In this document: in pieces, positions 8,463 to 64,000 of the stretch | Position numbering within the stretch: position 1 is the stretch's first letter | How the letters are laid out: the number at the start of each line of letters is the position of its first letter | NCBI GenBank assembly: GCA_964291295.2 | Contig: OZ219754.1 | Location: 1,600,001 to 1,664,000 of the forward strand | DNA length: 64,000 nucleotides | Direction of reading: 5' to 3' | From: an uncultured Candidatus Binatia bacterium | GTDB lineage: Bacteria; Desulfobacterota; Binatia; UBA9968; JAJDTQ01 | Notes under the pieces: generated by a model | What the model was told of the DNA's origin: nothing | What the model saw: only the letters and a program-made list of their open reading frames with translations | The model's database searches: none | Program-made: the position numbers and the translations under genes

Positions 8463-8466
8463 CCTC

Positions 8467-9543: not shown

Positions 9544-9611
9544 GGACCCGGGGAGTGATTTCGACAGCAGCGGCATGCGGACAAGGCCCGGGAGCGGGCG
9601 GGGATCCCGTG

Positions 9612-45003: not shown

Positions 45004-45015
45004 ATGGCGAAGGTC

Positions 45016-46299
45016 TTACCCGGATTCGTCCCTGGTCTCGTGTTCCAGGTCAACGTTCTCGTCATACGGTGTTGTAAACTCCACACCCTCGGTGTGAGGC
45101 CGGTAGTTCGGATATAGCCGGCGCAGATCCCATTCGTTGATCGCAGCCCGGACCTTGTAACGCATTCGTCCCTGAAAACCCGCTCCCCCCGCCGAGGCTT
45201 CATAGGCCGGAGGCTCCCACCCGTAAGCTTTGTTGTACAAGCCGCGCAAGGTTTCGACAGTTGCCTTTACGTCTTGATCGTTGGGTGACCTCAAGCTCAA
45301 TGAGTTGTTCACCAGGAGATGCATGCCGCTCTCTGCGCGAGCCCCGAGATCGCTGTGTCTCGCGCTCTGTTCCAGTTTCGGTCGAACGTAATCGCCGTCC
45401 TTCTTTTGTCCGTCAGGGCTGATGATAGCAGCCGCAAAATCCTCGGTAACTGCGCCGACTACGATCAGGCCGGGATAACTCTCTTCCTGCGCCAATCCCA
45501 TCCACCTTGCCAACTCCGCGTACGACCGTCCGCGTTGCAATATCGAATATGATCCGATCAACTCGATCTCGTCCAAAAGTACAACCCAGCCGCGATACCC
45601 GGCGCTCTTGATCAACTCAACGGCGAACCGCAATCGCTGCGGCGGCAGGTCGGCTGCTTTCGGCGCGCGGAACTTGTAATTTTTGGACTCATCGATCTGT
45701 TTGAGTCCATTGCGAATCCTGGAGATCGGTATGGGGTCACCCGCCCAGAAGGATTCGATTTCGCTCATCAACTCCATGTCTCTCGAAAGTTCGTGGACGA
45801 TACGGCTTGCAGGAAACATCATGCTCAGGCGGCCATCTGAGGCGGCGGTGTCAGCCCACCGAGCAAAGGTCATATACTCCTTCGAACTCGGCTCCATGGA
45901 AAGCGCAAGCTCTTCAATGAAGCGTCCGCGTCGGTCAGGTATCCGACCGTTCTCCATGGTCGAGACAAACACTTTCCCCAGATCGTAGAGCGGAGTTTCC
46001 TTGCTGATGGCAACCCTGCTGCAAACGAAGTTCTTGGAAAGGGCGAGATGTTCAAGGTGCGCCAGAAGATGCGACTTGCCCGAGCCAAAATCCCCGGAAA
46101 CAAGCATTCCATGAGAGTGTGTCAACGGCCCATCGGTTCTTGCCGCATCATCCAGCATCTGGACAAATCGTTCTTCAGCCTGCGGTTGATTGCAACCCAG
46201 TTCCCGTACTGCTTGCCGGTTCGGCACACCGTTGCGCAAGGCCTCCACGGCCATCCGGGCTTCCAGTCTTCCGTTCGTGTGAAACGCCATACGATCCAT
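45016..46299 (-). CDS. BrxD/DUF2791-like P-loop ATPase (intact motifs)
   Basis: AVEALRNGVP N-terminus, Walker A GDFGSGKSH, ISKETPL, Walker B VVLLDEIE. Confidence 0.82.
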   Translation of the reverse strand: MDRMAFHTNGRLEARMAVEALRNGVPNRQAVRELGCNQPQAEERFVQMLDDAARTDGPLTHSHGMLVSGDFGSGKSHLLAHLEHLALSKNFVCSRVAISKETPLYDLGKVFVSTMENGRIPDRRGRFIEELALSMEPSSKEYMTFARWADTAASDGRLSMMFPASRIVHELSRDMELMSEIESFWAGDPIPISRIRNGLKQIDESKNYKFRAPKAADLPPQRLRFAVELIKSAGYRGWVVLLDEIELIGSYSILQRGRSYAELARWMGLAQEESYPGLIVVGAVTEDFAAAIISPDGQKKDGDYVRPKLEQSARHSDLGARAESGMHLLVNNSLSLRSPNDQDVKATVETLRGLYNKAYGWEPPAYEASAGGAGFQGRMRYKVRAAINEWDLRRLYPNYRPHTEGVEFTTPYDENVDLEHETRDESG

Positions 46300-46302
46300 C
46301 CT

Positions 46303-47262
46303 CTACAAAAGCCGCACCAGAGCCGCCACCGGATTGGCGACATTCCGATCTCGAACGTCGTCCATCACCCTGGTGCGGAGAGCGGGGTAGATGGCCCAGC
46401 TTCTCCCGGACTGCTCGTCGATGAACGTGGCGTCGGTCAACGTCACCATCAAACACCCTGATAACCGATCCACGTCGTCAATGAATTCTCGCAGCAACTC
46501 GTAGTGATCCATGGTCATGGCCCGCGTGTAATAGCGCTTTCCGTCCATGGGATTACGAGACAGGGTCACGCGGGTATTATCCAAAAGAAGCACCGTACCG
46601 GAATATCCCGCCTGTCGTACCCAATACAAAGCCGATTCGATGAAATATCGTGCAGTCGTACGATTGATGGGTGTATGAATTTGGAACGGCTTGACATTGC
46701 CAATCCGCGTGTTGGTGCCCGATAGCCAGTCAAGCAGCGGCTGGTCAGCATATCTCTCCGGCCCCGCACTCTCCCTTTCGGAAAGGCAGAGATGCGTCAT
46801 AGCCACCCGGAAGGGCTTGGCCATGTTCGCGTTCTTGATGACCTTTTTCTCCAAGGCTGGTCGCAATTCGATGAGTACGGTCTGAGGTTCGATGTCGTTG
46901 GCTTGAGCCACGGCATTGATTATGTTGGCTGCCCCGTCCGGCTCAATGCCATCGACCGGAAAGGCCGTCTCCGAGAGCAGCCGCAAGACCACCCGACGCG
47001 CAAGCAATCGCCAGTCAATCTGCGAAGCCAGTCCGAAAAAGACATCCTGAGGCATGTGCACACGACTGGCGGTGGCATCCAGCGCAACGAACAGGTACGC
47101 TTGTCCTTCGCAAAGGTTCTTCATACCCTCGACAAGAGCAGGCCGTCGGTCCTCTGCGGTAATCGCAAACTTCACCGCAGCACCGCCGTCCTTGATGAAC
47201 GTGGACAAGTACTCGCGATCCATATGGTCGAGCCAGTCGGCTACCGGGATAGCATTGGTCAT
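46303..47262 (-). CDS. BrxD/DUF2791-like protein with degenerate Walker motifs
   Basis: IKDGGAAVKF, LLDWLSG, AGYSGTVLLLDN, YELLREFIDD and YPALRTRV match BrxD architecture, but there is no GxxGxGKS/T. Confidence 0.72.
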   Translation of the reverse strand: MTNAIPVADWLDHMDREYLSTFIKDGGAAVKFAITAEDRRPALVEGMKNLCEGQAYLFVALDATASRVHMPQDVFFGLASQIDWRLLARRVVLRLLSETAFPVDGIEPDGAANIINAVAQANDIEPQTVLIELRPALEKKVIKNANMAKPFRVAMTHLCLSERESAGPERYADQPLLDWLSGTNTRIGNVKPFQIHTPINRTTARYFIESALYWVRQAGYSGTVLLLDNTRVTLSRNPMDGKRYYTRAMTMDHYELLREFIDDVDRLSGCLMVTLTDATFIDEQSGRSWAIYPALRTRVMDDVRDRNVANPVAALVRLL

Positions 47263-48086
47263 TCGCCACCCTTGCTGAATCGAACACCGTAATATTCGGC
47301 GTTATCGCCGTTTGGCCCAATGAAGGAAAAAAGATCGCTCGAACGTTTCCGGGCACCCGTAGAACTCGGGAACGAAACGGCTGCGCCATCCTTGGTGCGG
47401 CGAGGTCCGTGCGACTCGAGAATGTAGAGGTCGCGGGCAAAGTCGCTTCGACCATAGTCGCGAGCGCTCCCAGGAAGGGCCGTCATCAGCTTGTATATCC
47501 TGGCCAGAGGCATAACACGACCGCTGTCCGGCAAGAGGCCTGAGGAGGATTTCTGGTTTGAGGATGATTTCTTTGCAATCTCTGCAAGGTCGGTATAAAC
47601 AGTATACAACGATTCCAGAAATCGTTGCGATGAAAAGCCGCTGGACTTCTTCTGATTCGTCAGGAGGAGCCCGGCGAGGTAGGACGGCCTTACGGTGGAC
47701 ACCTTCTTTCTGTCCACCATGACCACACGTTCAGCCGGGAGTATCCGTACGATTGACGGGTATGAGATCAAGCTCCCTTCCCGTTCATGAATCTTCAGCC
47801 CCTTTGTGCTCGCGGCAGCCTTGAGTTCTTCGGAGTACTGAGGACCGAACAACTCCTGTTCTCCCTCGCCTGAGAACGGCCAGCAGGAACCGATATTGGA
47901 AACCTCTTGCTGAAGCGTAGCGAGAACTTCGTTCAGTCTCCGCAGGCAGCGTCTTCTGCCGGCAATATCACCGGTTCGGGCAGCTTTCGCCAAAGCGCGG
48001 ATCTGAGAAGAAACGCTGCCGGCGGACTTTAGTGCGTTTTCGGCAGCTCTTTCGGTATCACTACAGGCTTGTTCGAAGCTGACCAC
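47259..48086 (-). CDS. Hypothetical protein (helical N-terminus, possible winged-helix C-terminus)
   Basis: GTG start with GGAGGTG RBS, about 275 aa; stop overlaps the next start codon (47259-47262). Confidence 0.75.
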   Translation of the reverse strand: MVSFEQACSDTERAAENALKSAGSVSSQIRALAKAARTGDIAGRRRCLRRLNEVLATLQQEVSNIGSCWPFSGEGEQELFGPQYSEELKAAASTKGLKIHEREGSLISYPSIVRILPAERVVMVDRKKVSTVRPSYLAGLLLTNQKKSSGFSSQRFLESLYTVYTDLAEIAKKSSSNQKSSSGLLPDSGRVMPLARIYKLMTALPGSARDYGRSDFARDLYILESHGPRRTKDGAAVSFPSSTGARKRSSDLFSFIGPNGDNAEYYGVRFSKGGE

Positions 48087-48268
48087 TATCCACACCTCCC
48101 ATGTGGGTCCAGATAACCAACACCATTGATACGAGTTTCTGTTTGGCAACGCAAGAGCCGGATTCCCTGACGAGCATCGGCCGTGCCACCGTCAGTTCGA
48201 TCACGGCGGCCGACGAGCATCCCGTCCATCCGGTGCTGTCGTAGCCTGCCGAGCCTCTTCAAACAGCG

Positions 48269-48631
48269 TCATCCCGTCCATCCTGCCGACAGCGCGTCCG
48301 CCGGTTCGAACATGGAGTGCGTCGTCTTTCCCGCCTGTCCAGTGGGTAGCCAACTGCGCAAGATGCGTTTCACCAGTTGGCGCAGGTTGGCACGGACGGT
48401 CTCGCTCCGTGTCCAGTCGTCGTTGCGGTCCTCGACTGTTGTCCGGCACAGGCCCGGGTTGAGCCGGGCCTGCGCCGGCGTAGACGCTGCCCCAGCAACA
48501 CCACGCCATGGTCTGCACGCTCGGCCATCGGTCCATCGGGGATGATGTCCAGGCCGTGCGCGCGGCCCGGCCGAGGCTCGAAAGCCATTCGAGGGTGCCC
48601 CCTCGACCGTAGATTCTGTGACACGGTTCAT
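48269..48631 (-). pseudogene. hsdR: Type I restriction endonuclease R subunit remnant (N- and C-termini only, frameshifted)
   Basis: Reading across three frames gives VTESTVE../LEWLSSLG/AHGLDIIPDGPMAERADHGVVLLGQRLR/ARLNP (HsdR N-terminus), joined to DWTRSETVRANLRQLVKRILR (DUF3387-like HsdR C-terminus). Confidence 0.75.
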
Positions 48632-49392
48632 GCAGCCAACTCATCCCGCGCTTCGTCACGGGTCGACCATGGAACCGGGTTCACCGCATAACTCCGCAGG
48701 GCATCCAGGACGTTCTCGGAAATCTTCTGTTCGGAGTCGTTCAGAATCGCGTAGGCGCGAGCCTCGGAGGAACGTTCTTCTCTGGTGTCAATCCAGGAAA
48801 ATACCATCGCCTGTGCGGCGTCGCGGTTTGGCCGGTTGATGGCACGCAGGACACGTTCAGGCCGAGCTTTCGATTTTGGTATGACAAAATCGAAACGATG
48901 ATCGTAGCCGCTCTTGCCGGTGAATTTGACGCTCGGCGTATAGCGGATATCGGAGAAATCAAACCACGCGGTGACATCCTCGTGAAACAGATGCATGATG
49001 GCAGGTGAGGCCAGATGGAAGAGATCGTTGACCGCCAGCATCGCCTGCACGAGATTGTGCTTCCGTAGAGGAAAATTGTCCGGTGATGCCTTGACTTCAA
49101 GCGCCTTTCCATTCGCCTGTACACCGAATCCGTTCAGCGTCGTCCTGAACATGGCTTGGCGCTTCGGGCTGTCAATCCTGCATCCTGATAATTCGAGATC
49201 TTCGAGAACATGCCCGTCATCCGTCAGCACGAAACCGTTGTCGGCGCGTCTGGCATAAATCTGGAGGTAATCGTTGTGCCGGTCCAGGTACGGTGTTGTG
49301 ATCTCGACGCAGTCTCTCACCTCGCGCAGGTTAGTCTTGTCCTTCAGCCAAGCCCAGTAAAGTTCCACCAGTTTCTGTATGTCCTGGATCAT
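48628..49392 (-). CDS. DUF1828/DUF1829-like protein
   Basis: [22 protein letters not shown]; [16 protein letters not shown]; ATGA overlaps at both ends. Confidence 0.8.
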
Positions 49393-49838
49393 ATGAACAG
49401 CCCCGGCCTGATAATGGGCGGCTCGGTGATGCGGCAGAACCGCATGAAGTCTTCGAGCGTCAGCCACGGGTCGTCGAGATTCGGGAAACTGACGGCTGGA
49501 GCCGGAAAGGCCCACTTGTCGCCAAACCCTTCTCGGTAAAGATGCAGGTGAAGGGAACCGACTTCTTTGCCGTCCGGGTTGCGATGCGGTGCCCCACCGA
49601 AATCGAGCCGAGCCAGGGTCCCAGTCTCCCGACCGCGATTCGGGTAGGTTCCTTTCTGGAGGTCAATCCTCGCCCGCCGAAGGTCGAGAAAGAACCGCTC
49701 GCGCCCATTCACTGAGACCAAGGGTGCTGTAAGCCGCCCTCCCAGACCCGGATAGTCCCGCTCGGCAGAGCCCGCACGCCGTTTTTCCATTGCCAGAAGC
49801 GCGTCGGCCTCTGCTTGTGCAAGGCTTGCGTCAGTCAT
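49389..49838 (-). CDS. DUF6978-like protein
   Basis: [28 protein letters not shown]...[22 protein letters not shown]. Confidence 0.72.
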
Positions 49839-50045
49839 GGGAAAGCGCGTGGATGGATGAAAATGGCGGAGGCGAAGACCCTCACAGCTTTGGCAGCGGT
49901 GGTCCGCCCGGCTTTGGCCCCCGCCGTCGGGGCCGGGGCCGGTGGAAGGGTTCGGGGTTGGTCCGGTCCGCCTCGTGACGGCGATGCGGTGTGTACGATG
50001 GCGTGTGCGCGATGCGCCGGGTGACGAGGAAGATCCTCGCGGCAC

Positions 50046-50930
50046 TCAGGGATTTGAGGCTGTGGTGGTCGGGTTCTTCTTGGCTCCGAATGCACCGACG
50101 GCAAGGGGATGGGTAAACACGCCGCCTACCTCGGCGTGGTTCGGGCCGTAGAACTTGCCGGAAATGTGCGCGGTACCCCGGTCGGAGAAGGCTCCGTTGC
50201 GTACGGTAATGCCGGGGAAGGTGATCGAACCGGTAAACTCCTCGTTCGTATCCATGTAGACGATGTCGGTGAACTCGACATCGAGCTCTCCGGTGGCGAG
50301 TTCGAATTCGAGAGAGGCGCCGCCCCGCAACGGCCGGAAAGGCTGTCTCGCCCTGGTGCTGCCGAACATCAACCCGGTCCATTCGGCGTTGCCGTCAGGG
50401 TTCTGCCCGGTCTGGTCGCCGAAGGAGACGTTGTATGCCGTTTGCCAGGTGACGGACTGACCCTGGGTGGTGGCGACCAAGGACTCGAATGCGCTGTGTT
50501 TGAGCCATGCGCCATAAGCTGCGTAGTTCCAGGTGACGTCGCCCCGGCTCTGCCGGACGCTGTATCGTGCGAACTGGACTCCGGAGATTTCGGTGGCCTC
50601 GCCGTAGTCGATGTCCGGGTCGATGACATGCTTGGAGAGGTCCTGATGCAACGGTCTGGCCGCATCATCCTCCGCTCCCGCCGCCGCCTCGCATTTGAAA
50701 CCCGCGCAATCGTACTGGCTCACGGATGGCGTGTCGTCTCCTTTCACCGAGACCACGTCGCCAATGATCAGGGTGTCCGCCGTCACTATGATATTGCTCA
50801 GTTGCGCCGCCACTCCAAGGCCTTCGAGGACCGTGCCAACGCGATTGCCGCCGCCGCCATCCTTGCCGCATGCCGCCAGCAGAACCACGAAAGCAAGTGC
50901 GATGCGCCACATGTAAAACCTCCTTGTCAT
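50046..50930 (-). CDS. Lipoprotein with transferrin-binding protein B-like C-terminal beta-barrel
   Basis: Lipobox LLAAC-G; AEWTGLMFG, ISGKFYGPNHAEVGGVF..GAFGAKK. Confidence 0.75.
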   Translation of the reverse strand: MTRRFYMWRIALAFVVLLAACGKDGGGGNRVGTVLEGLGVAAQLSNIIVTADTLIIGDVVSVKGDDTPSVSQYDCAGFKCEAAAGAEDDAARPLHQDLSKHVIDPDIDYGEATEISGVQFARYSVRQSRGDVTWNYAAYGAWLKHSAFESLVATTQGQSVTWQTAYNVSFGDQTGQNPDGNAEWTGLMFGSTRARQPFRPLRGGASLEFELATGELDVEFTDIVYMDTNEEFTGSITFPGITVRNGAFSDRGTAHISGKFYGPNHAEVGGVFTHPLAVGAFGAKKNPTTTASNP

Positions 50931-53449: not shown

Positions 53450-54088
53450 TCATTCGGCGTCCGGCTGCCGCTCAGGGGCCTGATCCCTGAATGCCGGCAA
53501 TCCCATGCAGTTCTCGTGGATACGAGCCAGGGTCGGGTATCGGTCCAGTTCCACGCCGAAGCGTCGTGCGTTGAAGACCTGCGGTACAAGGCAGATGTCG
53601 GCCAAGGTCGGCCGGTTGCCGAAGCAGTGGTCGCCGGTGCGGGAATCGTCCTTCAGCATGGCTTCCATGGCGGCAAAGCCCTCGTCGATCCAGTGGCGGG
53701 CCCACGCGGCCCGGGCGTCGTCAGCGACGCCCAGCTCGTTCTCCAGGTACTGGAGGACGCGGAGGTTGTTGATCGGGTGAATATCGCAGGCGACGACCTG
53801 CGCCAGCGCCCGGACCCACGCCCGGTCCACCGGTGCCTCGGGCAGAAGGGGCGGCTCCGGCACCCGTTCGTCCAGGTACTCGATGATGGCCAAGGACTGC
53901 ATCAGCACCGCCCCGTCGTCGGCCAGCGCCGGTACGAGGCCCTGCGGATTGCACGCCAGGAACTCCGGCGCCCGCTGCTCGTTGCGGCGCAGATGAACCG
54001 GCTGCAGATGGTAGTCCAGGCCCTTGAGCGACAGCGCGATGCGCACCCGGTAGGACGCGGAGCTTCTGTAGTAGCCGTAGAGCTTCAT
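53450..54088 (-). CDS. maiA: Maleylacetoacetate isomerase (GST zeta class)
   Basis: MKLYGYYRSSASYRVRIAL, NPQGLVP, QSLAIIEYL, CDIHPINNLRVL, PERQPDAE. Confidence 0.93.
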   Translation of the reverse strand: MKLYGYYRSSASYRVRIALSLKGLDYHLQPVHLRRNEQRAPEFLACNPQGLVPALADDGAVLMQSLAIIEYLDERVPEPPLLPEAPVDRAWVRALAQVVACDIHPINNLRVLQYLENELGVADDARAAWARHWIDEGFAAMEAMLKDDSRTGDHCFGNRPTLADICLVPQVFNARRFGVELDRYPTLARIHENCMGLPAFRDQAPERQPDAE

Positions 54089-54151
54089 GAATCCTCCGGA
54101 GTTGGCCGGTCCCGGGGTGATACGGCCCGCAAGCCGCATTGCCGCCCATAA

Positions 54152-57100
54152 TCAGGGAGGCGAAAGGACGATATGCGCCGGTCGATGTCTGCTTTCTCCG
54201 AAGTAGAGAGCGCGGAACCTGTCCATCTGCTTGATCCTGTCGATCAGCCCCTTCTCCTGCTTCGAGTTCGAGACGTTCCTGACAAGAAATTTCGCATCTG
54301 CGTCCGTCGAGCGAAAGATGAGATAGTTCGCAACAGCCGAAAATATGGACACATCGAAGTCCCGAGCTTCCTGTGATGCCAATACCAGGGATATGCCGTA
54401 CTTTCGGCACTCCTTCGCCATTGTCGGGATGAGTTTGAGTCGAGCGGCACGGTGTGCTTCGTCGAAGATCAACGCATGAGTGATACGCTTCTGTATTCCT
54501 CGGCGAAACATGTCCTTGTACAGACCGTAGAACACGAGATAGGCAAAAGCTCGTTGCAGGTTGTCGTTTTGTGTCGTGTGGATGCGAATGATGATCGGTC
54601 GTTCATCCTCCCACAAACTGTTCCGTGATCCATCACCGGTTTCAAAGAAACCGTAGTCATCGAGTTCACCCAAACGGGCAAGCAGGGTGCGCAGACCACG
54701 ATCCGGATTTTCGTCGGCATGCAGTATCTCGACGAAACGCTTGAATTCCGGCTCTGGAGCACTCTCGTTTCCGAAGATCCAACCCGCTTCCTCGAAGCTC
54801 TCCTTGATGGCGTGACGAATGCGGTCCGCCTGGATATCTCCCAAGTCCGGAAAGATGGCGGTGAAGATGTCCCGGACGGCCCCGGCAACGTCCAGATGGG
54901 CCATCCGCCCATTTCGATCAATGACTTGCAGCGGGTTAAAGCCAAGTCCGTCGAAGTCGACAAACCGAACTTCCCCGAGCGATTCATGAAGCCGCTCGTC
55001 GATGTCTTGATGGTAGGAAAAGACGACAGGTCGAACGTCCGCAGCGACCATTTTCTTGCACAGATTGACCAGACATGTGGTCTTTCCCATGCCGGGCAGT
55101 CCGGCAATCAGAAGGTGAGGATTGCCGTCTATGCCAAGCCGCCAGTCAACCCCGGCGTTCGTGAGCATGTCTGTGCCCAGGTGCACATCCGGCACACGAC
55201 CGTCCTTGTTGGATAACAAGGCATCCGATGCCTGCCCAGCATCATTCGCTTGTCGAGCGGCAGGTTCGTTTGCGGGAAACGCATGGCTCCCGGTCGACAT
55301 GCTCTCTTCTCGTTGACTCGCTCGTTCCGAAGGAACTGCTCCGGAGTCGCAATTCGAATCCGGGAGAAGACCGGGTCCAAAGAGATATATCTGCGTGGAA
55401 TAGTGATCTGGCGAGATTCTCAGCGGCTGGTGGCCGGAGTATTCCGGGCAGAACAGCCAGCCGCGATCGCTTCTCGTGGTCGATGCGAAGGTATAGTCTC
55501 TGCCCCGTTCGATCATGCGATCGATTTGGTCCATGAGTTCGCCATGGCGCTGGGCCGGAAGACAATGCCTTCGCGCCTTGTCGGCGTAGAAGCGCAGCAC
55601 ACGCGCCAGCTTGGCGCGGCGAATGGCCCGGAACGTCGAGCAGACGTTTTCGCCGCCATACCAGCCCTCCCATTGCTCCCGGAGCGTCTGTGTCTGTTTG
55701 TCGATCTGTTTGAGGATATCCGAGGACCGAGCCGTACGCAGATGACGTCGGAACTTTACCTCGATAAACTGAAAACAGAGGCCCTTGCGGGGCTCCACGG
55801 TCACGTAGATCAGGTCGGGGCGTGTCGCTCTCCCATCCTTGTCCTTGTCTCCCATCAAGGGCGGAAGCAGATCCCTGACATCGTCAACCGGGATGATGAC
55901 TCCGTCCTCAAGCGAGCCCCAGCAGTCGTCGTCTCCCGAGAGGGCTTGGCAGTTGGCGTGGGACATGGCCAGCGCGATCAATTCCGATGTAGGCCGCCTA
56001 TGGCCGGTGAGACGAATGGCAAGTCGGCCGCTAAGGGCTTTCAGATGTCTCAACAGGAACGCGGCGTTGCCGCTGCCGCGGCTCAATCCCATCTGATCGA
56101 GCATGCCGTCGAGCAGGCTGCAGACTTCCTCCAGATTGGCAGTGGATGTAATCAATTGCAGGCACCCGAGGTCTTCACGCTCCGGCACGCAGTCGATGAC
56201 GTATGCGTCGTAGACCGCACGGTTATCCTGCGGTGAGTCGAAATATTCGATGCCGGCGTTCCGGTCCAAGGTGATGAGCCAATCGCAAAGTTGGTGCAGT
56301 TGCTTGAGGCTCTGGCCCTTCTCGGGAGGTACTTCCGTTCTCAATACCGGCAATCTGCCGGTATTTGCGCCGATGTGGCGGGCTACGCCATCCTGAAGAG
56401 CGTGCTGGAGGCGCGCGAGCCACTCGGTATGTGTCCGTCTGGACGGGTGCCTTTCGCCTTCGGAAACCTTGAGAGGGATGCTACTCCATGCGGGTGAAGG
56501 CAGGCTCGTGTAGTACCGCTTGTAGAAGGACAGCAAGCCGAACGCGTGGGGTGGCCCGGAGGCCTCGTCCTCCTTTTCCACGACGACACGGGACTCGAAC
56601 GTATCGAACGCGATCGCCAAGTGCGCCGCGGTGCTTGGATCCGGCTGCTCCTTGCGCGCCCAACGCAGCCGGGGCATGTTGACGCCTCCGGGAAGGCTCA
56701 AGGACTCCAACATCCACCGATCTTCTTCAGCCAGAACCCCTGCTCCACTTCGGCGCTTCTCCCGCGCTTCCGCAATGAACCGTCCCGCGACGCCACGTTG
56801 CTCGGTGGTCGGATAGAGGTCCAACGAGAATATCGGCGCTGTCGCGGTATATTCCTGGCCACCGTCCTGATCCGCATCATCAACATCCTGTCGATAGCGC
56901 CGCTGAACGGTACCGAGCGATCGGGCGACGGTCTGACCGTCGCCGGCGCGTAGCGCATGGATGTGCAGCAGGCGTGACGTGTCGTGACAATCCAGGTACT
57001 TGACGACTTCGTCCGCCAACACTTGGGCGCTCTGGCTGCCTACGGCCGGTATGCTGTCGGCTACCTCGCCGGCGCCGAGCGCGCGCGCCAGGATCGCCAC

Positions 57101-59146
57101 CGCGGCCTTGGGTTCCTTGTCCGTATCTGGCACCATTCCCACCGAATGGAAGCCGAGCATATCAGCGAAGACGAACGCCCCGCCATTGGGGTTGGGAAGG
57201 AACGTGGGGAACATGGCACCGTTCAGGCTCGAAAACTCGGCGCGAATGTCCTTGGGGGCCTGACCTTGGGCGAAGGCCGTATGGAGAACGAGATTGTCGT
57301 AAGCTGCATGCCACGCCACCCGCAACGGGTGGGCAGGCAGGACGATGAGGCCGATGGTGCGTTCAGACAGCGATTGGACTTCCACGGTGTTGGCAAGCGA
57401 CAACAACGGATCGCCGTCTTGCAGGAGCGCAACCCAGGCCCGCAGATACTCGTGGACGATGCGGAATACTCCGGCCATTTCGTCATAAATCTGGCCGACT
57501 CCACCAATCTCGGCGAAGCGGATGGCAAGTTTGCGGCTGGCCGCCGCCACCGATTCCCATGCTTGGCCGTCATCACTCGGAAACGGCTTGAACTCCGGAG
57601 CGCCGGCGCGCTCTCCGGAGCCGCGCACGGTGACTATCCACCGGCCAATTCGGCCTTCTCTCTTCACCCATTGACTTTCGACCTCGGCAATCAGCGAGGG
57701 CCTGAAGACACGAAAGCTCTTTCGTCGGCCCTGTTCGACGGGCGTTCGCAACAGGATGATGCCTTTGTTGGAATCGGTGGTCACGCCGGAAGACGGAGAT
57801 GAGACAATCGCCGAGACGGCTTCGCGACTTTCGAGTTCGGCAAGCCCTTCGCTGAGTGTCCGAACCTTCGTGCCAACGCCTCCGGTTTCCTGCTTCGGCG
57901 GGTCTCCGAAGCGAATAACAAACTCCTCGCTTTCCTGGCGCTCGAATTCAGCCTTGTCGACAACTTCAACCGTGACTTTAGCCGACAGCCGTGCGTTTTC
58001 ATCCAGAATCTGGAAATCGTCTTCCGTGAAGCGATGTTTCTCCCCACCTTTTCGTGCAGAGTGCGGGACTTGCTCGCTTGCGATCTCTTCACCCTGATCC
58101 GTTTCGACAACAACACGATAGTCCGCTGCGTTCTTTTCGAGACGAGCCGGCTCAATCTTCCACCTGATCTCCAGAATCGAAGAAGGGCCGCTCTTGTCTG
58201 CATCTCCTCTGAGGATGAGTTCGGGAGGATTGTCTGCACCGCCGTCCTCGACCAAGCCGGACCACCGGGCGACGGTACCGTTCCGGTTTCGCCAGGAGGT
58301 TAGTTCGATATGCTGGATCGACTGTGCCGGAGGTTCGGTACGCAGATTACCGATCCACAGGGTTTCTTTCTCGGCCAACGTTTCCAGCGCGGTACGCAGC
58401 GGCTTGGTATCTACTGAATGGAGGAAGCGCTCAAGGTTGTTGATTTCGGTCTCCGAACTCCGATCGAACCGTACTGCGTCGATGCGCGTCGCTGGTGCCA
58501 AGCTCGCGCCGGCAGTCCCCAACAGGCGATCGACCAACATGCGCGAAGTGTCGAGGTCATCCGGAAAACTCGAGCCTTTCGAATGCCGGATGGGCCAAAG
58601 ACCAAGTAAATGCAAGTAAGATCCCGGCCATTTGCTACCCGCGGCGACTTGGCAGAGGAAGTCGAACTCCGCCCATCGCGACAGGGCGTACCTGCCGCGG
58701 CGTCCTCGCGCCTTTTTGATCGCCTGCTCGGCGTATCGACGATCCTCCGAAGAGTGGCTCGTTGTGATCTGACGGAGCGCCAAGCGCCCCGCCTCCTGAA
58801 ACAGCGCTACTTCACCCACTTCCCGGGCAGCGCTGTAGATGCTGTCCATTCCGGCACCGGCATGTGCAGTGTCAATCAGAAGCAGGACGGCATCGCCCTT
58901 CGCCTCGCGTATCTCTACCGCACGATCGGCGGTGACGGTCCGTTCTCCGGCATCTTCCCTGTCTGCCACCATCAGCACTTGCCAACCGGAAGGCGCAAAG
59001 GATCGATCCGCGGCGAGCGCTTTCACTACACCCGGCGTCAAGCAGCGCACAAAGGCCATAGTGCCAGGTAGGGAAGCGCCGAGTACTTTGCCGAGCGCCT
59101 TTGCGAGTACCTTGCCGTGAAGTCCCGTCCAGTGCATGTCAATCAT
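54152..59146 (-). CDS. Large DndH(DptH)/Mad8-like protein: PD-(D/E)xK motif plus C-terminal HerA/FtsK-type ATPase
   Basis: About 1,660 aa. RPDLIYV...FIEVKF; Walker A GLPGMGKT, Walker B ALIFDEAH, KECRKYG and LASQ HerA motifs. Confidence 0.78.
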   Translation of the reverse strand: MIDMHWTGLHGKVLAKALGKVLGASLPGTMAFVRCLTPGVVKALAADRSFAPSGWQVLMVADREDAGERTVTADRAVEIREAKGDAVLLLIDTAHAGAGMDSIYSAAREVGEVALFQEAGRLALRQITTSHSSEDRRYAEQAIKKARGRRGRYALSRWAEFDFLCQVAAGSKWPGSYLHLLGLWPIRHSKGSSFPDDLDTSRMLVDRLLGTAGASLAPATRIDAVRFDRSSETEINNLERFLHSVDTKPLRTALETLAEKETLWIGNLRTEPPAQSIQHIELTSWRNRNGTVARWSGLVEDGGADNPPELILRGDADKSGPSSILEIRWKIEPARLEKNAADYRVVVETDQGEEIASEQVPHSARKGGEKHRFTEDDFQILDENARLSAKVTVEVVDKAEFERQESEEFVIRFGDPPKQETGGVGTKVRTLSEGLAELESREAVSAIVSSPSSGVTTDSNKGIILLRTPVEQGRRKSFRVFRPSLIAEVESQWVKREGRIGRWIVTVRGSGERAGAPEFKPFPSDDGQAWESVAAASRKLAIRFAEIGGVGQIYDEMAGVFRIVHEYLRAWVALLQDGDPLLSLANTVEVQSLSERTIGLIVLPAHPLRVAWHAAYDNLVLHTAFAQGQAPKDIRAEFSSLNGAMFPTFLPNPNGGAFVFADMLGFHSVGMVPDTDKEPKAAVAILARALGAGEVADSIPAVGSQSAQVLADEVVKYLDCHDTSRLLHIHALRAGDGQTVARSLGTVQRRYRQDVDDADQDGGQEYTATAPIFSLDLYPTTEQRGVAGRFIAEAREKRRSGAGVLAEEDRWMLESLSLPGGVNMPRLRWARKEQPDPSTAAHLAIAFDTFESRVVVEKEDEASGPPHAFGLLSFYKRYYTSLPSPAWSSIPLKVSEGERHPSRRTHTEWLARLQHALQDGVARHIGANTGRLPVLRTEVPPEKGQSLKQLHQLCDWLITLDRNAGIEYFDSPQDNRAVYDAYVIDCVPEREDLGCLQLITSTANLEEVCSLLDGMLDQMGLSRGSGNAAFLLRHLKALSGRLAIRLTGHRRPTSELIALAMSHANCQALSGDDDCWGSLEDGVIIPVDDVRDLLPPLMGDKDKDGRATRPDLIYVTVEPRKGLCFQFIEVKFRRHLRTARSSDILKQIDKQTQTLREQWEGWYGGENVCSTFRAIRRAKLARVLRFYADKARRHCLPAQRHGELMDQIDRMIERGRDYTFASTTRSDRGWLFCPEYSGHQPLRISPDHYSTQIYLFGPGLLPDSNCDSGAVPSERASQREESMSTGSHAFPANEPAARQANDAGQASDALLSNKDGRVPDVHLGTDMLTNAGVDWRLGIDGNPHLLIAGLPGMGKTTCLVNLCKKMVAADVRPVVFSYHQDIDERLHESLGEVRFVDFDGLGFNPLQVIDRNGRMAHLDVAGAVRDIFTAIFPDLGDIQADRIRHAIKESFEEAGWIFGNESAPEPEFKRFVEILHADENPDRGLRTLLARLGELDDYGFFETGDGSRNSLWEDERPIIIRIHTTQNDNLQRAFAYLVFYGLYKDMFRRGIQKRITHALIFDEAHRAARLKLIPTMAKECRKYGISLVLASQEARDFDVSIFSAVANYLIFRSTDADAKFLVRNVSNSKQEKGLIDRIKQMDRFRALYFGESRHRPAHIVLSPP

Positions 59147-60956
59147 CCATCCGAGGTTCAAAGCGAGGCCGTAGCCGTTTCATCGCCTCGGCATCGTTGA
59201 CGCCGACCAGAAGTCCCAGGTCTCGCAGACGACGTTCCAGCACCACACGGTTCGAGCGGAGAAGATCATTGGAGATCGTCATGCCCGGAGGCGCGGAATC
59301 GACGTGGAAGCCGTATCGCTCGCGGATTCTGTCCAGGAATTCCTTCAATGAGAGCGGTTTCACATTTGGCTTGTAGCCACTCCGAAGAAGGTGAAGGTGA
59401 ACCAGATAATCCAGAACCGGGTCGGTAAGAACCAGCGATCGAACTTCTCGCTGTCTCCTTCCGCGTCCAGTCGTATGGGCACCACTTGTGGTCTTCCGTT
59501 TGCGCGCCAGACCGTTCGGCCGCTCCACATTCAGCGTCGAGTCGACCATGGAAATGGTATTGCCCCGCGCTTTGGTTCCCAAGAGCGGCGTCAGCGCTGC
59601 GGCGAGGCGCCGGACTGGATGCGGCTCATTCTGCTCGTTGTCCAACACCCTCTCGGCTTCTGGATAGTCATCCTTCAATTCCTCTGCCAGTTCTGCGCCG
59701 TATTTGTACATTTGACGATGAATGTTCCCCGCTTCCGGGTGGCGCTTGTGGAGCAGTTCACCGAGCAGGTTGAGCCATGATGTGGCGTAGGGCCGAATCG
59801 GGCTTGGATCTTTTTTCAATTCCTCCTTTAATTCCCTATTGTACCTCGCCTCGTAATCAAGCAGACGCAGCATCATCAGGATGGCGGGGACCCGTTCAAC
59901 GCGACGCATGAGGTCATCGAAAGACTGTTCGGCCAGGCCCCGCAATCGGCCATCAATGCCGTTCGAACAGTCAACGAACATGCTTGCGGGTCGCTGAAAC
60001 CGTTTTTCGATGACACTACCTGTATCGGCCCATTCAAACAGGATTTCGATGACGCTGGTGAGGATCGTCGTCATTCCTGTCGCGATACACGCCTCAAGCA
60101 TATCGACGAATGCATGACGAGGGATAACCGCCGCATAGGCGCGGACGAAACGGCGCATGTCTTCCGAGAAAGTCGACGCCGCATTTTCCGCGATGGGACG
60201 TTGATTGGAGATTTTGGCGCTGTCCGATCCCCGCATCTTGTCGGGCGCTGCGCCTAACTTCTGCGCCAGCCGGATCATCAACAGCTGATCGATCCCAAGG
60301 TCCACAAAAGACTCTTTGAATTCGTCTCCCGCTAAGTTGCCCTTCAGATTGCTTCGCTGGACGCCGTGACTGAATGCTCTCAGAAGCAGGTTCTTGGTAT
60401 GTTCTCCAGCGATTGGAAACAATGTCGGTTTTCCTTCTTTACTCGGTTCTACATGTAGCCCGTCTTGGTTCGCCAGCATTGCGACAATCATCTCCGGTAC
60501 GGACCGAAGGTGTGTCACACTCTCCGGAAGGTCGACCCAGCTTGCCATATAGTGGGCTGGGGCAACCCGCTGAATCTGCTTGTCTCTACCGAGACTGTGG
60601 TTGATGTTCTCAAGACTGAAACCTAGTAGTAAATCGCCGAGTATTGCTTGTTCAACTCTTCCGTCAAAGCCGTGTAGATCGGGGCTGGCCGCCAATTCTT
60701 CCGCGACTCGCCCGATGGTCGTCGCTTTCCTGCGATCTCTGGGGCTACCGGCCGTTGGACCAAAAGCCTCCAGAAACTGGCCTTTACCGCGTCGATGGCC
60801 GAATCGAAGCATGTAGAACACGGCCGGCAGCACCGCTGCGAGTTCGAACAAGTTGAACGAGATCGGCAGTACCTTGTCATACCGTGCCGACCAGATTTCG
60901 TCCGCCATTCGCGGGGAGAGTACCTTCCGAACTATGGTGCGGGCGCTATCGGCCAT
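59139..60956 (-). CDS. Hypothetical protein, DndG(DptG)/Mad7-like by position and C-terminus
   Basis: 605 aa between the kinase-ATPase and the HerA ATPase. The C-terminus LKEFLDRIRERYGF...LERRLRDLGLLVGVNDA resembles DndG/Mad7 endings (recalled, not searched). Confidence 0.6.
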   Translation of the reverse strand: MADSARTIVRKVLSPRMADEIWSARYDKVLPISFNLFELAAVLPAVFYMLRFGHRRGKGQFLEAFGPTAGSPRDRRKATTIGRVAEELAASPDLHGFDGRVEQAILGDLLLGFSLENINHSLGRDKQIQRVAPAHYMASWVDLPESVTHLRSVPEMIVAMLANQDGLHVEPSKEGKPTLFPIAGEHTKNLLLRAFSHGVQRSNLKGNLAGDEFKESFVDLGIDQLLMIRLAQKLGAAPDKMRGSDSAKISNQRPIAENAASTFSEDMRRFVRAYAAVIPRHAFVDMLEACIATGMTTILTSVIEILFEWADTGSVIEKRFQRPASMFVDCSNGIDGRLRGLAEQSFDDLMRRVERVPAILMMLRLLDYEARYNRELKEELKKDPSPIRPYATSWLNLLGELLHKRHPEAGNIHRQMYKYGAELAEELKDDYPEAERVLDNEQNEPHPVRRLAAALTPLLGTKARGNTISMVDSTLNVERPNGLARKRKTTSGAHTTGRGRRQREVRSLVLTDPVLDYLVHLHLLRSGYKPNVKPLSLKEFLDRIRERYGFHVDSAPPGMTISNDLLRSNRVVLERRLRDLGLLVGVNDAEAMKRLRPRFEPRMDD

Positions 60957-60966
60957 GAGCCACCCC

Positions 60967-63900
60967 CTACGATTCAGACCGCGAGATCACTATACGTTGT
61001 CGAGGACCGGAGCCAGAATCTTCGGTGCGTGCCGAAACCTCGAATGTCGTGGTTTCTGCCCTCGGATTCCAGGCCAGCATCCTACGATGGTCCTCACGAG
61101 TGAGACGTTGTACGAAGATCGAGAGATGCGCAAAGGTGTCATCTGCCGCCGCGTCGCCCAATTGATAGCCGTCATTGAGTTCCAGTAGGAGATCAAACAG
61201 GTCGGCGCCGAGGCGCAGGCGTTCTTCGCTTCCATCGTGGTAACGGTAGATCAGGTACGCTTGGCGATGGAGCCAGTCCAAGCCCTCTACCCTTTTCTTC
61301 TCGGCTTCCAGGCGAAAATTGGTTACGGATTTCTCGACCCAGAAAGCCGTCTCCGTCGGTGTTCTGGGCGTGACGCGCAATGGCACCATGCCGGGTCGCT
61401 CCAAAGCCTTTGGCGGAAGCGCCTCCAGACGGGAAATGCCACGGCAAAGGTCCCGTATCAGAGCCTTCACATTCTCACTCGGTGGGTCGACAGCAAGGTT
61501 ACGAAATTGACGCAGATGCCGCCCGTGGGCCAGACCGAACGCATCGGGATCGCCCGTCAGCCGTTCAATCTCCTCCCGGCCCAACACGAAATAGGCCTGG
61601 CGTCGGAGAAACTCGAGGCTCTTCGTCCCGTCACGCTGCGAAACATCACCGATATCGGCACCTCGCTGCAGATGAAGCAGGTGACGGTCGATCTGCGGCT
61701 GCGCTTCAAGGGCGGGGTCGAAATGTGGCAGTTCGCTCAGCAATTCACCCTGCCGCCCCGTTGACTCGGGCGAGAAGGCGCGGTCCCAGTAGGGATGAGG
61801 CGTCGATGCGTCGGAGCCGTCCGTGGCATCGTGATACTCGCTGCAGTAATGTACTCCAAAGAGGATATAGACCAGCGCGGCTCGCAATTCGCGGACGGTG
61901 ATATGGACCTCGCCTCGCAGATGTACGGCCTGCAACGCCTCGAACAGCCGGCCACGAGCGTGGTCGCGAATGGATTTTTCCGAGAGGTCGCCCGGGCCGA
62001 AGCGTTTGGTGGCGCGGAAGACCTCGCAGCGTTCCCGGGCCGAGCAAGTGCGACAGGGAGTCCAGATTTCCGCAGCGCGTTCGCCGCCGTACAGCTTGTC
62101 CACCAGACGACCAAGAAAGTCGGTGGCGATGACCTTGTCGTCGTCGGCGATATCGCCAACCAGCGAACGATGGTTCAGATCGAAGAACCGGATATGGGAT
62201 CCGGAACTTGGAGCAACGTTCTCGAGAAGGTCGGAAAGGTTCCTTGTCAACGACGACTCGCCTTGGTCTCCTTCGACGGACTCGACCCACTCAAGGAGCC
62301 GGCCATCGTTGATGGCCAGCAGATGGACGATATCCTCGTCCGGCGGGCCGTGCCGGAACGGCGCCAGGAATTCGTTCAGAAGATCGTCCGCAGAACGACC
62401 CTGCCATGACGCCGAGCCGTCGAGATTCATGCGCACGGTCAAGCCGTCGTCCAACTGCCCCTCAATGATGCGCGTCGCCGAAGTCTGGACATCCAGGCGA
62501 AGTCTCTTTGCGAGGCGCTGAAGCAGGGCAGTCTTCCCGTCGCCGGCATTGCCGCAGAGGATCACGAGGTTCGCTTTGCGCTCCTTGATGTCCCCAAATA
62601 GTTCTCGCTCCAGGCGGGTTTCGACATACGTCTCCTCGGCAAAGTCACTGTCCATGCCACGTGTCTCGCTGTTGCCCCACCGCGATCCAGGATAGGACTG
62701 TAGCAACAACTTGAGCCAATCTACCTCCTGTTCCGTTAGCCCCTCCCTCGCATCGGTCGGCTGTGCCGCTTCCTCCGCATCGGCGACGCGGGCCACATCC
62801 CCATGGGTGGTGACTATCGATCGGTTCCCGACATGCCTGGATGGACTCAAGATCGCTAGTGCGTCCGCGACGCTGGCAATGCGCTCATCCGGGTTCGGGC
62901 TCGTGGCCCGATCAAGGAACCCTGCCAGCGATGGATCGTCCTCCCGGTCGATCCCGGTCCAGTTCAATCCGCGTTCCTTGGCCAGAACACCGTCGTATTG
63001 AAACGGTTCCCTATCGAACAGCACGTGAAAGAAACTCGCAGCCAATGCATAAAGGTCGTCGGACGGCTTCGCGGCATCGTGTTCAAGAAACGAAGGCGAG
63101 CAGTACGGTACCGTGCCAGGTGCGTCTGGCGGAACGCCGATCCTGGTCACGCAGTCATAGTCGGTCAGCACGAGATCAGGACCGGAAACGATGATGTTAC
63201 GCGGACTGATGTCGCCGTGCACCAGGCCGTTGTCGTGCAGTACCCGCAGCGCCTCGCATGTTGTCCGCAGCCAGCTTCTGGCCAGAGCCTCGTGGGAGTC
63301 CTCTCCCCGATCTTCGGCAAGAAGCGGCAGCATACCGGAGTACTCCCGCAGCGGCTCGCCCTCGACCCAGGTCATCAAGGCAACGAAGCCGTTATCCCGC
63401 CATTCTGATGCGACCTCCAAGATCATTGACAAAGCTGAGTGACGAAGATGTGAGCGCGCCAGCTTGTAGGCTCCAAGCACCCTCCGCCCGGTTTGCCCAT
63501 CGCGGGCTACCTTGGCGACATAGGTGCCGAGATCATCTTTTGTTTCTCGATCCACTTCCACGACCTTGAAAGTCGTTCCTACTCCACCGGAACCAAGACG
63601 CGAGACGATTCGATAGTCGTTTGCTCCGAAAGAGACGACTTGGTCCTCTGTCCAGAACCTCGCCGGTGGTGGCGGCGGTTCCGGCGGCGGCTCGCCCAAC
63701 TGTTCGGAGAACAGCGCTTCCAGTTTCGACAGGCTGCTTCTCTCCGCGGGATCGTTGCCCATTCCCAAGGTCAGAATTTCCGTAGCCTTGACGCTGATGG
63801 CATCTTCCTGACCCTCGAACAGCACTGCAAGCGAAGCGCATAACGAATAGACGTCGGACCGATGATCTGCCGCTCCGCGGCCCTGGGCGCGAACCTCGGG

Positions 63901-63999
63901 AGATACTGCGGCATCCCAATCTGTCGCGGTGGCAGGGGAAGCCACGGAGACATCCGTCGGAATCCGGGCATGCTCGAAACCAGTCAGGATCGGCGAGTT
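60967..63999 (-). CDS. Tandem (pseudo)kinase + Ser/Thr kinase + DndF-like P-loop ATPase fusion (Mad6-like), 5'-truncated by window edge
   Basis: The frame is open to the window edge (NSPILTGFEHARIP...SDVYSL). Second kinase: LGSGGVG, VAK, HGDISPRN, DYD, DDLYAL. P-loop: LVILCGNAGDGKT, LLAINDGRLL. Confidence 0.82.
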   Translation of the reverse strand, partial: NSPILTGFEHARIPTDVSVASPATATDWDAAVSPEVRAQGRGAADHRSDVYSLCASLAVLFEGQEDAISVKATEILTLGMGNDPAERSSLSKLEALFSEQLGEPPPEPPPPPARFWTEDQVVSFGANDYRIVSRLGSGGVGTTFKVVEVDRETKDDLGTYVAKVARDGQTGRRVLGAYKLARSHLRHSALSMILEVASEWRDNGFVALMTWVEGEPLREYSGMLPLLAEDRGEDSHEALARSWLRTTCEALRVLHDNGLVHGDISPRNIIVSGPDLVLTDYDCVTRIGVPPDAPGTVPYCSPSFLEHDAAKPSDDLYALAASFFHVLFDREPFQYDGVLAKERGLNWTGIDREDDPSLAGFLDRATSPNPDERIASVADALAILSPSRHVGNRSIVTTHGDVARVADAEEAAQPTDAREGLTEQEVDWLKLLLQSYPGSRWGNSETRGMDSDFAEETYVETRLERELFGDIKERKANLVILCGNAGDGKTALLQRLAKRLRLDVQTSATRIIEGQLDDGLTVRMNLDGSASWQGRSADDLLNEFLAPFRHGPPDEDIVHLLAINDGRLLEWVESVEGDQGESSLTRNLSDLLENVAPSSGSHIRFFDLNHRSLVGDIADDDKVIATDFLGRLVDKLYGGERAAEIWTPCRTCSARERCEVFRATKRFGPGDLSEKSIRDHARGRLFEALQAVHLRGEVHITVRELRAALVYILFGVHYCSEYHDATDGSDASTPHPYWDRAFSPESTGRQGELLSELPHFDPALEAQPQIDRHLLHLQRGADIGDVSQRDGTKSLEFLRRQAYFVLGREEIERLTGDPDAFGLAHGRHLRQFRNLAVDPPSENVKALIRDLCRGISRLEALPPKALERPGMVPLRVTPRTPTETAFWVEKSVTNFRLEAEKKRVEGLDWLHRQAYLIYRYHDGSEERLRLGADLFDLLLELNDGYQLGDAAADDTFAHLSIFVQRLTREDHRRMLAWNPRAETTTFEVSARTEDSGSGPRQRIVISRSES

Positions 64000-64000
64000 G

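Follow-up and report, generated by a model that had tools for sequence, protein, structure and literature searches.

Introduction

Classical DptFGH (DndFGH) systems, as in Salmonella and E. coli B7A, are linked to the dndBCDE genes and spare phosphorothioate-marked DNA. We analysed a cassette of three genes (A, B and C, here called the trio) at the end of a 64,000-nucleotide stretch of DNA (the window, G000:C1:1600001-1664000) from an uncultured Candidatus Binatia bacterium whose genome is 3.70 Mb long with 66% GC. The trio is probably a counter-invader cassette of the DndFGH class that was acquired horizontally and is self-contained in its three genes, of the subtype in which NERD, pseudokinase and kinase domains precede the DndF module. 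Its resemblance to restriction genes had been pointed out in a first-pass annotation made from the letters of the window.

The DndFGH class was described by Rakesh, Aravind and Krishnan (NAR 2024, PMC10853773), and the text of that paper available to us characterizes it as a tripartite F-G-H operon, the genes of which invariably occur together, and as a counter-invader system that stands alone, commonly without coupling to DndABCDE. The core of DndF is a derived P-loop kinase with a canonical Walker A motif, an asparagine-type Walker B (ND) motif, a large lid and an optional Zn insert, followed by an alpha+beta domain. DndF may bear an N-terminal NERD domain and tandem inactive and active serine/threonine/tyrosine (S/T/Y) kinase domains, with an optional winged helix-turn-helix (wHTH) before the NERD domain in some fusions. 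DndG is a triple-wHTH protein and DndH an eight-domain protein, domains i to iv of which comprise an inactive SNF2 C-domain, a helix-turn-helix, two beta-sandwiches and a target recognition domain (TRD). The available text of a 2026 paper by the same authors on bacteriophage exclusion (BREX) systems (PMC12839542) restates the NERD-kinase-DndF association and likens the triad to PglW.

The other relevant system is the methylation-associated defence system (MADS). According to the accessible part of its preprint (Maestri et al., bioRxiv 10.1101/2023.03.30.534895), defence requires every one of mad6, mad7 and mad8; the authors' detection model treats these three as mandatory, and mad1-5 are classed as accessory. 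MADS is not mentioned in the available text of either Rakesh paper, and no paper containing both 'methylation-associated defense' (American spelling) and 'DndFGH' was found.

Results

Organization of the trio

The trio is made up of three intact large open reading frames (ORFs), placed head to tail on the minus strand and spanning positions 54152-65004 (Table 1). The spacer between A and B is 10 nt. An overlap of 23 nt between B and C exists only if C starts at a TTG codon (the longest ORF); an ATG is present at 59137, with 1 nt between it and the stop codon of B, and gene C most likely encodes 1,661 aa and is coupled to B rather than overlapping it, because the orthologues begin at this same start with the identical 1-nt spacing. 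The first-pass annotation had described three coupled genes with a 10-nt A/B gap and a nuclease motif and HerA ATPase in C, all confirmed by the ORFs and motifs; of the B/C overlap that it also gave, the coupling stands and the overlap would need the less likely TTG start. It had correctly placed the start of the operon past position 64000: A extends to 65004, which adds the NERD domain and most of the first kinase-like domain.

Table 1. Positions (window numbering) of the genes of the trio and of their domains. Residue numbers of C refer to the translation from TTG.
Feature	Position	Strand	Remarks
Gene A	60967..65004	-	1,345 aa; residues 336-1345 inside the window; remaining 1,004 nt past 64000
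First kinase-like domain of A, C-terminal part	63685..64000	-	aa ~190-440 of A; remainder beyond 64000
Second protein kinase domain of A	62833..63621	-	aa 462-724 of A; Pfam Pkinase
DndF/SspF/DptF-like half of A	60967..62727	-	aa ~760-1345 of A; P-loop
Gene B	59139..60956	-	605 aa; DndG-fold, MAD7-like predicted DNA-binding subunit
Gene C	54152..59161	-	DndH-like; 1,669 aa from TTG at 59161, 1,661 aa from ATG at 59137
N-terminal region of C	57572..59137	-	alpha/beta domain and helical region, aa ~9-265; all-beta region, aa ~280-530
Methyltransferase-fold region of C	56117..57364	-	class-I S-adenosylmethionine-methyltransferase fold with large insert, aa ~600-1015; catalytically eroded
Nuclease motif region of C	55562..55909	-	PD-(D/E)xK; D1116, E1134, K1136
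HerA/FtsK-type ATPase of C	54152..55225	-	aa 1313-1669; Walker A G1354-T1361, Walker B D1567-E1568

Domain content of A, B and C

The domain order of A is a NERD nuclease, a pseudokinase, an active S/T/Y kinase, a DndF/SspF-like P-loop nucleoside triphosphate (NTP)-binding module with a CxxCx5C insert, and a C-terminal domain; the calls on the two kinases are predictions. The NERD domain (aa 16-90, Pfam) is in the part of A outside the window, and its motif D58...E71-V-K73 was conserved in an alignment of 42 full-length A sequences. The first kinase-like domain is a predicted pseudokinase because H322-R323-N324 and G342-F343-E344 stand in these sequences where HRD and DFG are expected. The second kinase apparently is active, keeping a G-loop (G471-G476), K498, H596-G-D598, N603 and D615-Y-D617 across the same alignment. 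The Pfam Pkinase model matched A with E-values of 3.3e-17 (window part) and 5.3e-24 (whole protein), and a second Pkinase stretch appeared only in the scan of the full-length protein. The earlier view of A as a fusion of kinase(s) and a P-loop domain was thus extended by the full-length protein to a dead kinase, a live kinase and a NERD domain.

The P-loop half of A showed a conserved Walker A motif (G818-T825), an N899-D900 motif and C984-x2-C987-x5-C993 in the 42 sequences. Its tentative assignment as a DndF core comes from these motifs and from matches to hidden Markov models (HMMs), structure models having been made for B and C only. The PADLOC SspF model covered aa 793-1051 (E 2e-16) and the PADLOC DndF model reached an E-value of 2e-8, while TIGR03238 (DptF) gave 1e-4 with 20.9 bits against a cut-off of 50, over the N-terminal 47 residues only. 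The NCBIfam MAD6 model matched aa 6-557 (E 1.5e-46, 159 bits against a cut-off of 460), and a match to the PADLOC PglW model was also found in A (E 9e-11).

The NCBIfam MAD7 model matched B over its full length (E 2.8e-46, 159 bits against a cut-off of 410). The AlphaFold2 model of B, built with 44 sequences, had a mean predicted local distance difference test score (pLDDT) of 83.5 and a predicted template modelling score (pTM) of 0.88, and its sole significant Foldseek neighbour was the solved DndG structure 7exx (E 6e-4, probability 1.00), the next match having an E-value of 0.33. On this model and the MAD7 match together, B is named a DndG homologue by predicted fold and MAD7-like by sequence; on the same model it has the compact multi-wHTH organization and solved-DndG fold of the class. 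The C-terminus of B weakly matched SspG (E 4e-3). No match to B was obtained in the PDB sequence search, nor any family match in the copy of Pfam that was scanned, which does not contain PF26611. A large protein database attaches PF26611 to B and its relatives. In a large protein set, 1,266 relatives of B were found at E<=1e-3. B-type proteins are presently annotated as 'hypothetical', and DndG/MAD7-like is a possible name for them.

The model of residues 1-1200 of C (AlphaFold2, 50 sequences; pLDDT 77.1, pTM 0.63) comprised an alpha/beta domain, a helical region, an all-beta region (~280-530) and a mixed region. Foldseek gave weak mixed matches only for this model (superfamily 2 helicases, beta-sandwich proteins and one methyltransferase); for the N-terminus these were Brr2 (E 6e-4 to 3e-3, template modelling score < 0.1) and beta-sandwich proteins (probability 0.93-1.0, E 1e-3 to 8e-3). 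The predicted order of the N-terminal third is consistent with that of the published DndH domains i-iii, without proving the match. Further along, C has the inactive Dam-type methyltransferase with a nested insert that constitutes domain v of DndH. The active restriction endonuclease (REase) of domain vi was recognized on its motif alone (D1116...E1134-V-K1136), and these three residues were nearly invariant (>=90%) in 50 sequences. Domain vii, the C-terminal HerA/FtsK ATPase, matched the PADLOC DndH (E 2e-18) and mad8 (E 3.4e-18) models as well as HerA models, and its best PDB sequence match was 7es4_A, the C-terminal domain of DptH (E 1.5e-7), followed by HerA chains. The PADLOC mad8 model (314 positions) reaches only this ATPase, leaving ~1,300 N-terminal residues of C outside. 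The nuclease motif and the HerA-type Walker A and B motifs were conserved in >=80-97% of 51 sequences. The layout of C matches that described for DndH: the N-terminal domains are followed by an inactive methyltransferase fold, then by a PD-(D/E)xK nuclease and finally by a HerA/FtsK ATPase of the DptH type.

Comparison with described systems

The trio has the tripartite operon of the DndFGH class, A, B and C lying on one strand with spacers of 10 nt and 1 nt and being colinear in 64 loci. The NERD-kinase DndFGH variants in the available text of PMC10853773, a computational paper, have the same gene order, the same domain grammar of A and the DndG fold of B, with no Dnd modification genes nearby, and no architectural difference from the trio could be demonstrated. 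The architecture is not novel: both the NERD-kinase-DndF fusion and stand-alone DndFGH are already in print in the accessible parts of PMC10853773 and PMC12839542, and the trio is a further example of a described kind.

Comparison with MADS showed that the order kinase protein, MAD7-like protein and ATPase is common to the trio and the MADS core of Pseudomonas aeruginosa SMC4386, as far as the available text describes it, and that MAD7 is the sequence family matching full-length B best, and MAD6 the one matching the N-terminal half of A best. In contrast, mad1-5 (regulator, methylase, specificity subunit and the OLD-like MAD3/MAD4) are absent from the trio, A exceeds the 612-position MAD6 model by its extra DndF-like half, and C has 1,661 aa. 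The absence of mad1-5 does not alone exclude a MADS-like core, because the authors of MADS class these genes as accessory. By its profile matches, the trio is placed on the MADS-core (MAD6/MAD7/MAD8) side of the DndFGH class. Canonical MADS was rejected, there being no mad1-5 and the scores being below the cut-offs.

Classical DptFGH resembles the trio in the ATPase of C (7es4), the sizes of the G and H proteins and the operon order, whereas classical DptF lacks the NERD-kinase extension of A. An assignment to classical Dnd-linked DptFGH was rejected as well: the trio has no dnd genes beside it, DndD is missing from the genome, the equivalog cut-offs were missed and the DndC of the genome is 830 kb away. 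SspF was the best PADLOC match of the P-loop half of A, but no sspABCD genes were found near the trio and SspH was not among the matches of C. We know of no kinase fusion of SspF. PglW of type 2 BREX/Pgl shares with A the N-terminal triad of NERD, pseudokinase and active kinase (PMC12839542, available text). In PglW this triad is followed by triple-wHTH and inactive STAND modules, and the protein acts together with PglX, PglY and PglZ, whereas in A the triad is followed by a putative DndF core and the partners are of the G and H types.

The relation to DndF-G-H and Mad6-7-8 proposed in the first-pass annotation therefore holds for all three proteins, through the MAD7 match and DndG fold of B, the MAD6 and SspF/DndF/DptF matches of A, and the DndH, mad8 and DptH matches of the C ATPase. 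Scoring against Dpt and MAD HMMs yielded no high MAD6/7/8 scores accompanied by mad1-5, and homology to DndFGH was present.

Conservation and modularity

A scan of species-representative genomes gave 64 trio loci from many phyla, in which the three genes are colinear with 42-73% identity; the trio is beyond chance because of this colinear conservation in other genomes. Across 42-52 orthologues, catalytic residues were conserved in the NERD domain, in kinase 2, in both P-loops and in the REase. By tblastn, a whole A was present in 53/64 loci and a whole C in 56/64.

Among the 11 loci in which A was not whole, seven are at contig ends, one is a 1.7-kb contig and three (L017, L044 and L066) carry the DndF-like half alone (~8050-10010, 606-652 aa), with no NERD-kinase sequence anywhere in the locus despite at least 8 kb of upstream DNA. 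The NERD-kinase fusion on A is modular, since these three loci have the DndF-like half by itself.

The eight loci without a whole C comprised three contig ends (L012, L013, L060), the 1.7-kb contig (L049), L022, and L033, L038 and L041. In these last three, from Bryobacterales, C stops near residue 1265-1278, without the HerA/FtsK part. A separate ORF of 364-384 aa with no Pfam match at 1e-5 follows C in L033 and L038, and in L041 the ORFs beside the shortened C are on the opposite strand; the ATPase may have been split off or replaced in the three loci. An IS21 IstB gene (L022:8333-9082, minus strand) directly follows a C truncated at residue ~1090, which suggests that gene C of L022 was disrupted by a mobile element.

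Genes linked to the trio

Clustering of 1,580 flanking ORFs across the 64 loci showed that no gene family flanks the trio in more than 6/64 loci. The 215 nearest flanking ORFs were selected and 136 of them scanned with Pfam, namely 135 of >=200 aa within 1.7 kb and one 173-aa ORF of L017. This gave three N6-methylases (L023, L058, L064) and one HsdR (L008), the other scanned neighbours being housekeeping or assorted mobile and defence genes. The tblastn searches over the flanks (1.25 Mb) found DndC in 0/64 loci and N6-methylase-like genes or fragments in 5/64. There is no hidden conserved marking partner linked to the cassette, because no neighbour family recurs, DndC is absent from the flanks of all loci and N6-methylases occur in five; a conserved flanking partner was accordingly rejected for these 64 loci, and the possibly novel self-marking partner of the first-pass annotation finds no counterpart among the flanking genes.

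The N6-methylase genes or fragments are at L064:11389-13605 (plus strand), L058:3438-5660 (minus), L023:2974-4560 (minus), L009:5557-5913 and in L040. In L064, the start of hsdM falls 40 nt ahead of the end of C and in the same orientation, a MADS-like physical coupling.

Genomic context of the trio

The GC content at third codon positions (GC3) was 0.62-0.67 in A, B and C versus 0.85-0.88 in the adjoining genes for a glutathione S-transferase (GST), an ABC-binding protein and a fumarylacetoacetate (FAA) hydrolase. The cassette is therefore foreign DNA, horizontally acquired, and it is mobile.

Downstream of the trio are the GST gene and the gene for an ABC substrate-binding protein, and upstream of A are a divergent host amidohydrolase gene and then metabolic genes. 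The first-pass annotation had noted the lack of dnd and methyltransferase genes in the window; this was verified, and none adjoin the cassette on either side. The methyltransferase/HsdS or dndBCDE genes that it had thought might lie beyond 64000 are not there, the amidohydrolase and metabolic genes occupying that position instead. A 463-aa minus-strand ORF upstream of A was considered as a fourth gene and rejected: its GC3 is 0.63 in that frame, and the overlapping plus-strand ORF of 368 aa has a GC3 of 0.85 and a Pfam Amidohydro_2 match.

The GST gene (window 53450-54139, minus strand, GC3 0.86, as in the host) starts 12 nt after the stop codon of C on the same strand, so that read-through from the cassette into it is possible; in other loci no such gene is conserved beside the trio. 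A second low-GC island lies at window positions 42916-50930 on the minus strand and contains an SNF2-family helicase (695 aa), a DUF1828/DUF1829 protein, a DUF6978 protein, ORFs of unknown function and a BrxC/BrxD-like ATPase split over two ORFs (427 and 319 aa).

Discussion

Proposed working of the cassette

We infer every mechanistic step in the working of this probable counter-invader cassette. B, with its predicted DndG fold and multiple wHTH, and the inactive-methylase/insert region of C would read DNA, and the DndF-like NTP-binding module of A would be the sensor. The HerA/FtsK motor of C would pump DNA to the PD-(D/E)xK nuclease of the same protein, which would cut invader DNA. On A, the NERD nuclease may form, together with the live kinase, a regulatory or back-up arm, possibly abortive; the kinase control suggested in the first-pass annotation is a hypothesis of the same kind. 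No linked modification gene would be needed, and a phosphorothioate self mark would be facultative where the genome has a Dnd modification module.

Several results weigh against this interpretation. The scores of MAD6 (159 versus 460 bits), MAD7 (159 versus 410 bits) and DptF were below the curated equivalog cut-offs, and DptG (TIGR03236) and DptH (TIGR03237) gave no match at E<=0.01 in the proteins of the trio. The N-terminal 530 residues of C only weakly match the published DndH domains, and the PDB sequence search gave nothing above noise for the DndF-like half of A, that is, no comparable solved structure. The flanks in this genome are housekeeping genes and not a defence island. DndC is commoner in trio carriers than in lineage-matched genomes (11/40 versus 12/198). 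Finally, our literature search found no published experiment on the NERD-kinase-DndF subtype, and 'defence' rests on homology and context.

Possible marking genes elsewhere in the genomes

The trio could be the restriction arm of a phosphorothioate or other sulphur-marking system encoded elsewhere, here by a seven-gene cassette with DndA and a short DndC, and leave marked self DNA intact, in the manner of classical DndFGH acting with DndBCDE; we regard this as unlikely. The genome search did reveal a DndC above the curated cut-off (about 337-338 versus 290 bits), 830 kb from the trio and beside a DndA/SspA-like desulfurase. However, this DndC is short, covering profile positions 11-341 of 447 with the last ~100 absent, and no DndD was found in the genome.

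The distribution of DndC can be read in both directions. Its presence in 11/40 trio-bearing genomes compares with 4/400 genomes in the phylum of the window, 7/100 in its class and 5/98 in the order of G022 (a comparison that leaves out three trio genomes), and the excess corresponds to a Fisher odds ratio of 5.9 (p = 2e-4, computed on 12/199), related genomes being non-independent counts. This excess could reflect a real phosphorothioation dependence in some hosts, and it weakens a universal 'modification-independent' description of the trio. On the other side, 29/40 trio genomes lack DndC, which was found within ~25 kb of the trio in a single case (G012). PglZ, taken as a negative control, was present in 21/40 trio genomes versus 12/198 others (4/100 + 8/98). 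The DndC excess is not specific, because this unrelated defence marker is enriched as much or more, and it seems to be a feature that well-assembled genomes rich in defence genes have in general; the global enrichment was thereby undermined as evidence of coupling, and a link between the trio and DndC is unproven.

Finer comparisons were also made. In the class of the window, DndC was found in 3/6 trio genomes and PglZ in 0/6, these genomes being few and related. Within the phylum, the cross-tabulation had no power: 2/400 other genomes had B-like genes, neither of them with DndC. DndD adjoined DndC in 5/5 tested carriers of a full-length DndC, and canonical DptG (TIGR03236) was not found in the five DndC/DndD-positive trio genomes. 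Both observations speak for the restriction-arm reading, but this model matched nothing in the control genomes either.

The short DndC of this genome belongs to a low-GC seven-gene cassette on the plus strand outside the window (G000:C1:770692-779057, L003:8692-17057), which encodes, besides the DndA/SspA-like desulfurase and DndC, a 591-aa DUF262-like/SspE-N-like protein, an SNF2 helicase, a ParB-like protein, a 236-aa protein and a 412-aa protein with a metallo-beta-lactamase fold. The same seven genes occur in the same order in 4/6 short-DndC loci examined (L082-L085, from different groups) and partially in L080 and L081. This cassette is a possible variant sulphur-modification/restriction module; it is not described in the available text of PMC10853773 and could be an undescribed one.

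We also considered that the trio reads in trans a DNA mark made by unlinked cassettes (here the seven-gene DndA/short-DndC one, without DndD/DndE), the live kinase switching to a NERD-dependent abortive response if the mark is absent or the main nuclease cannot act. We find such a scheme quite unlikely.

The possibility that the trio is a MADS-type methylation-dependent system with unlinked methylase and specificity genes, in which an N6-adenine methylase of the genome would give the self mark, is very unlikely. The kinship of B and of the N-terminal half of A to MAD7 and MAD6 agrees with it, as do the nine N6_Mtase-family matches in the genome, one of them ~20 kb away, and the N6-methylase gene or fragment within 10 kb in 5/64 loci, with the hsdM of L064 40 nt before the end of C. 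However, 59/64 loci have no nearby methylase, no mad1-5-like genes flank the trio here, and type I methylases are common in any genome and hence uninformative. Moreover, the MAD6 and MAD7 scores are about one third of the equivalog cut-offs, and the DndF-like half of A and ~1,300 N-terminal residues of C are outside the MADS models. The nearest of the N6_Mtase matches (G000:C1:1685354-1686382, plus strand, ~20 kb beyond A) is in an ORF of 561-578 aa followed by two more plus-strand ORFs, and is possibly a type I restriction-modification system.

That the trio is not a defence system at all and is instead a mobile-element or chromosome-maintenance module for DNA pumping or segregation sharing DndFGH domains is extremely unlikely, for although HerA/FtsK ATPases act in segregation and conjugation and the flanks here are housekeeping genes, the active sites of two nucleases are conserved in the trio, which also includes an inactive methylase/TRD-type module, its cross-phylum distribution is patchy at high identity, some loci adjoin defence or mobile genes (AbiE, HsdR/M, PLD-SNF2, OLD-like ATPases, transposases), and its proteins are homologous to the experimentally required mad6-8 (bioRxiv 10.1101/2023.03.30.534895, available part).

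Significance

The clade of the trio is suited to a first experiment, having intact catalytic sites, high cross-phylum conservation and confident models for B and for the larger part of C. Should the cassette prove to defend its host, three genes would make up a compact and transferable restriction machine that tells invader DNA apart without a modification enzyme of its own, and it would connect MADS, which has been tested and is linked to methylation, with DndFGH, which has been tested and is linked to phosphorothioation.

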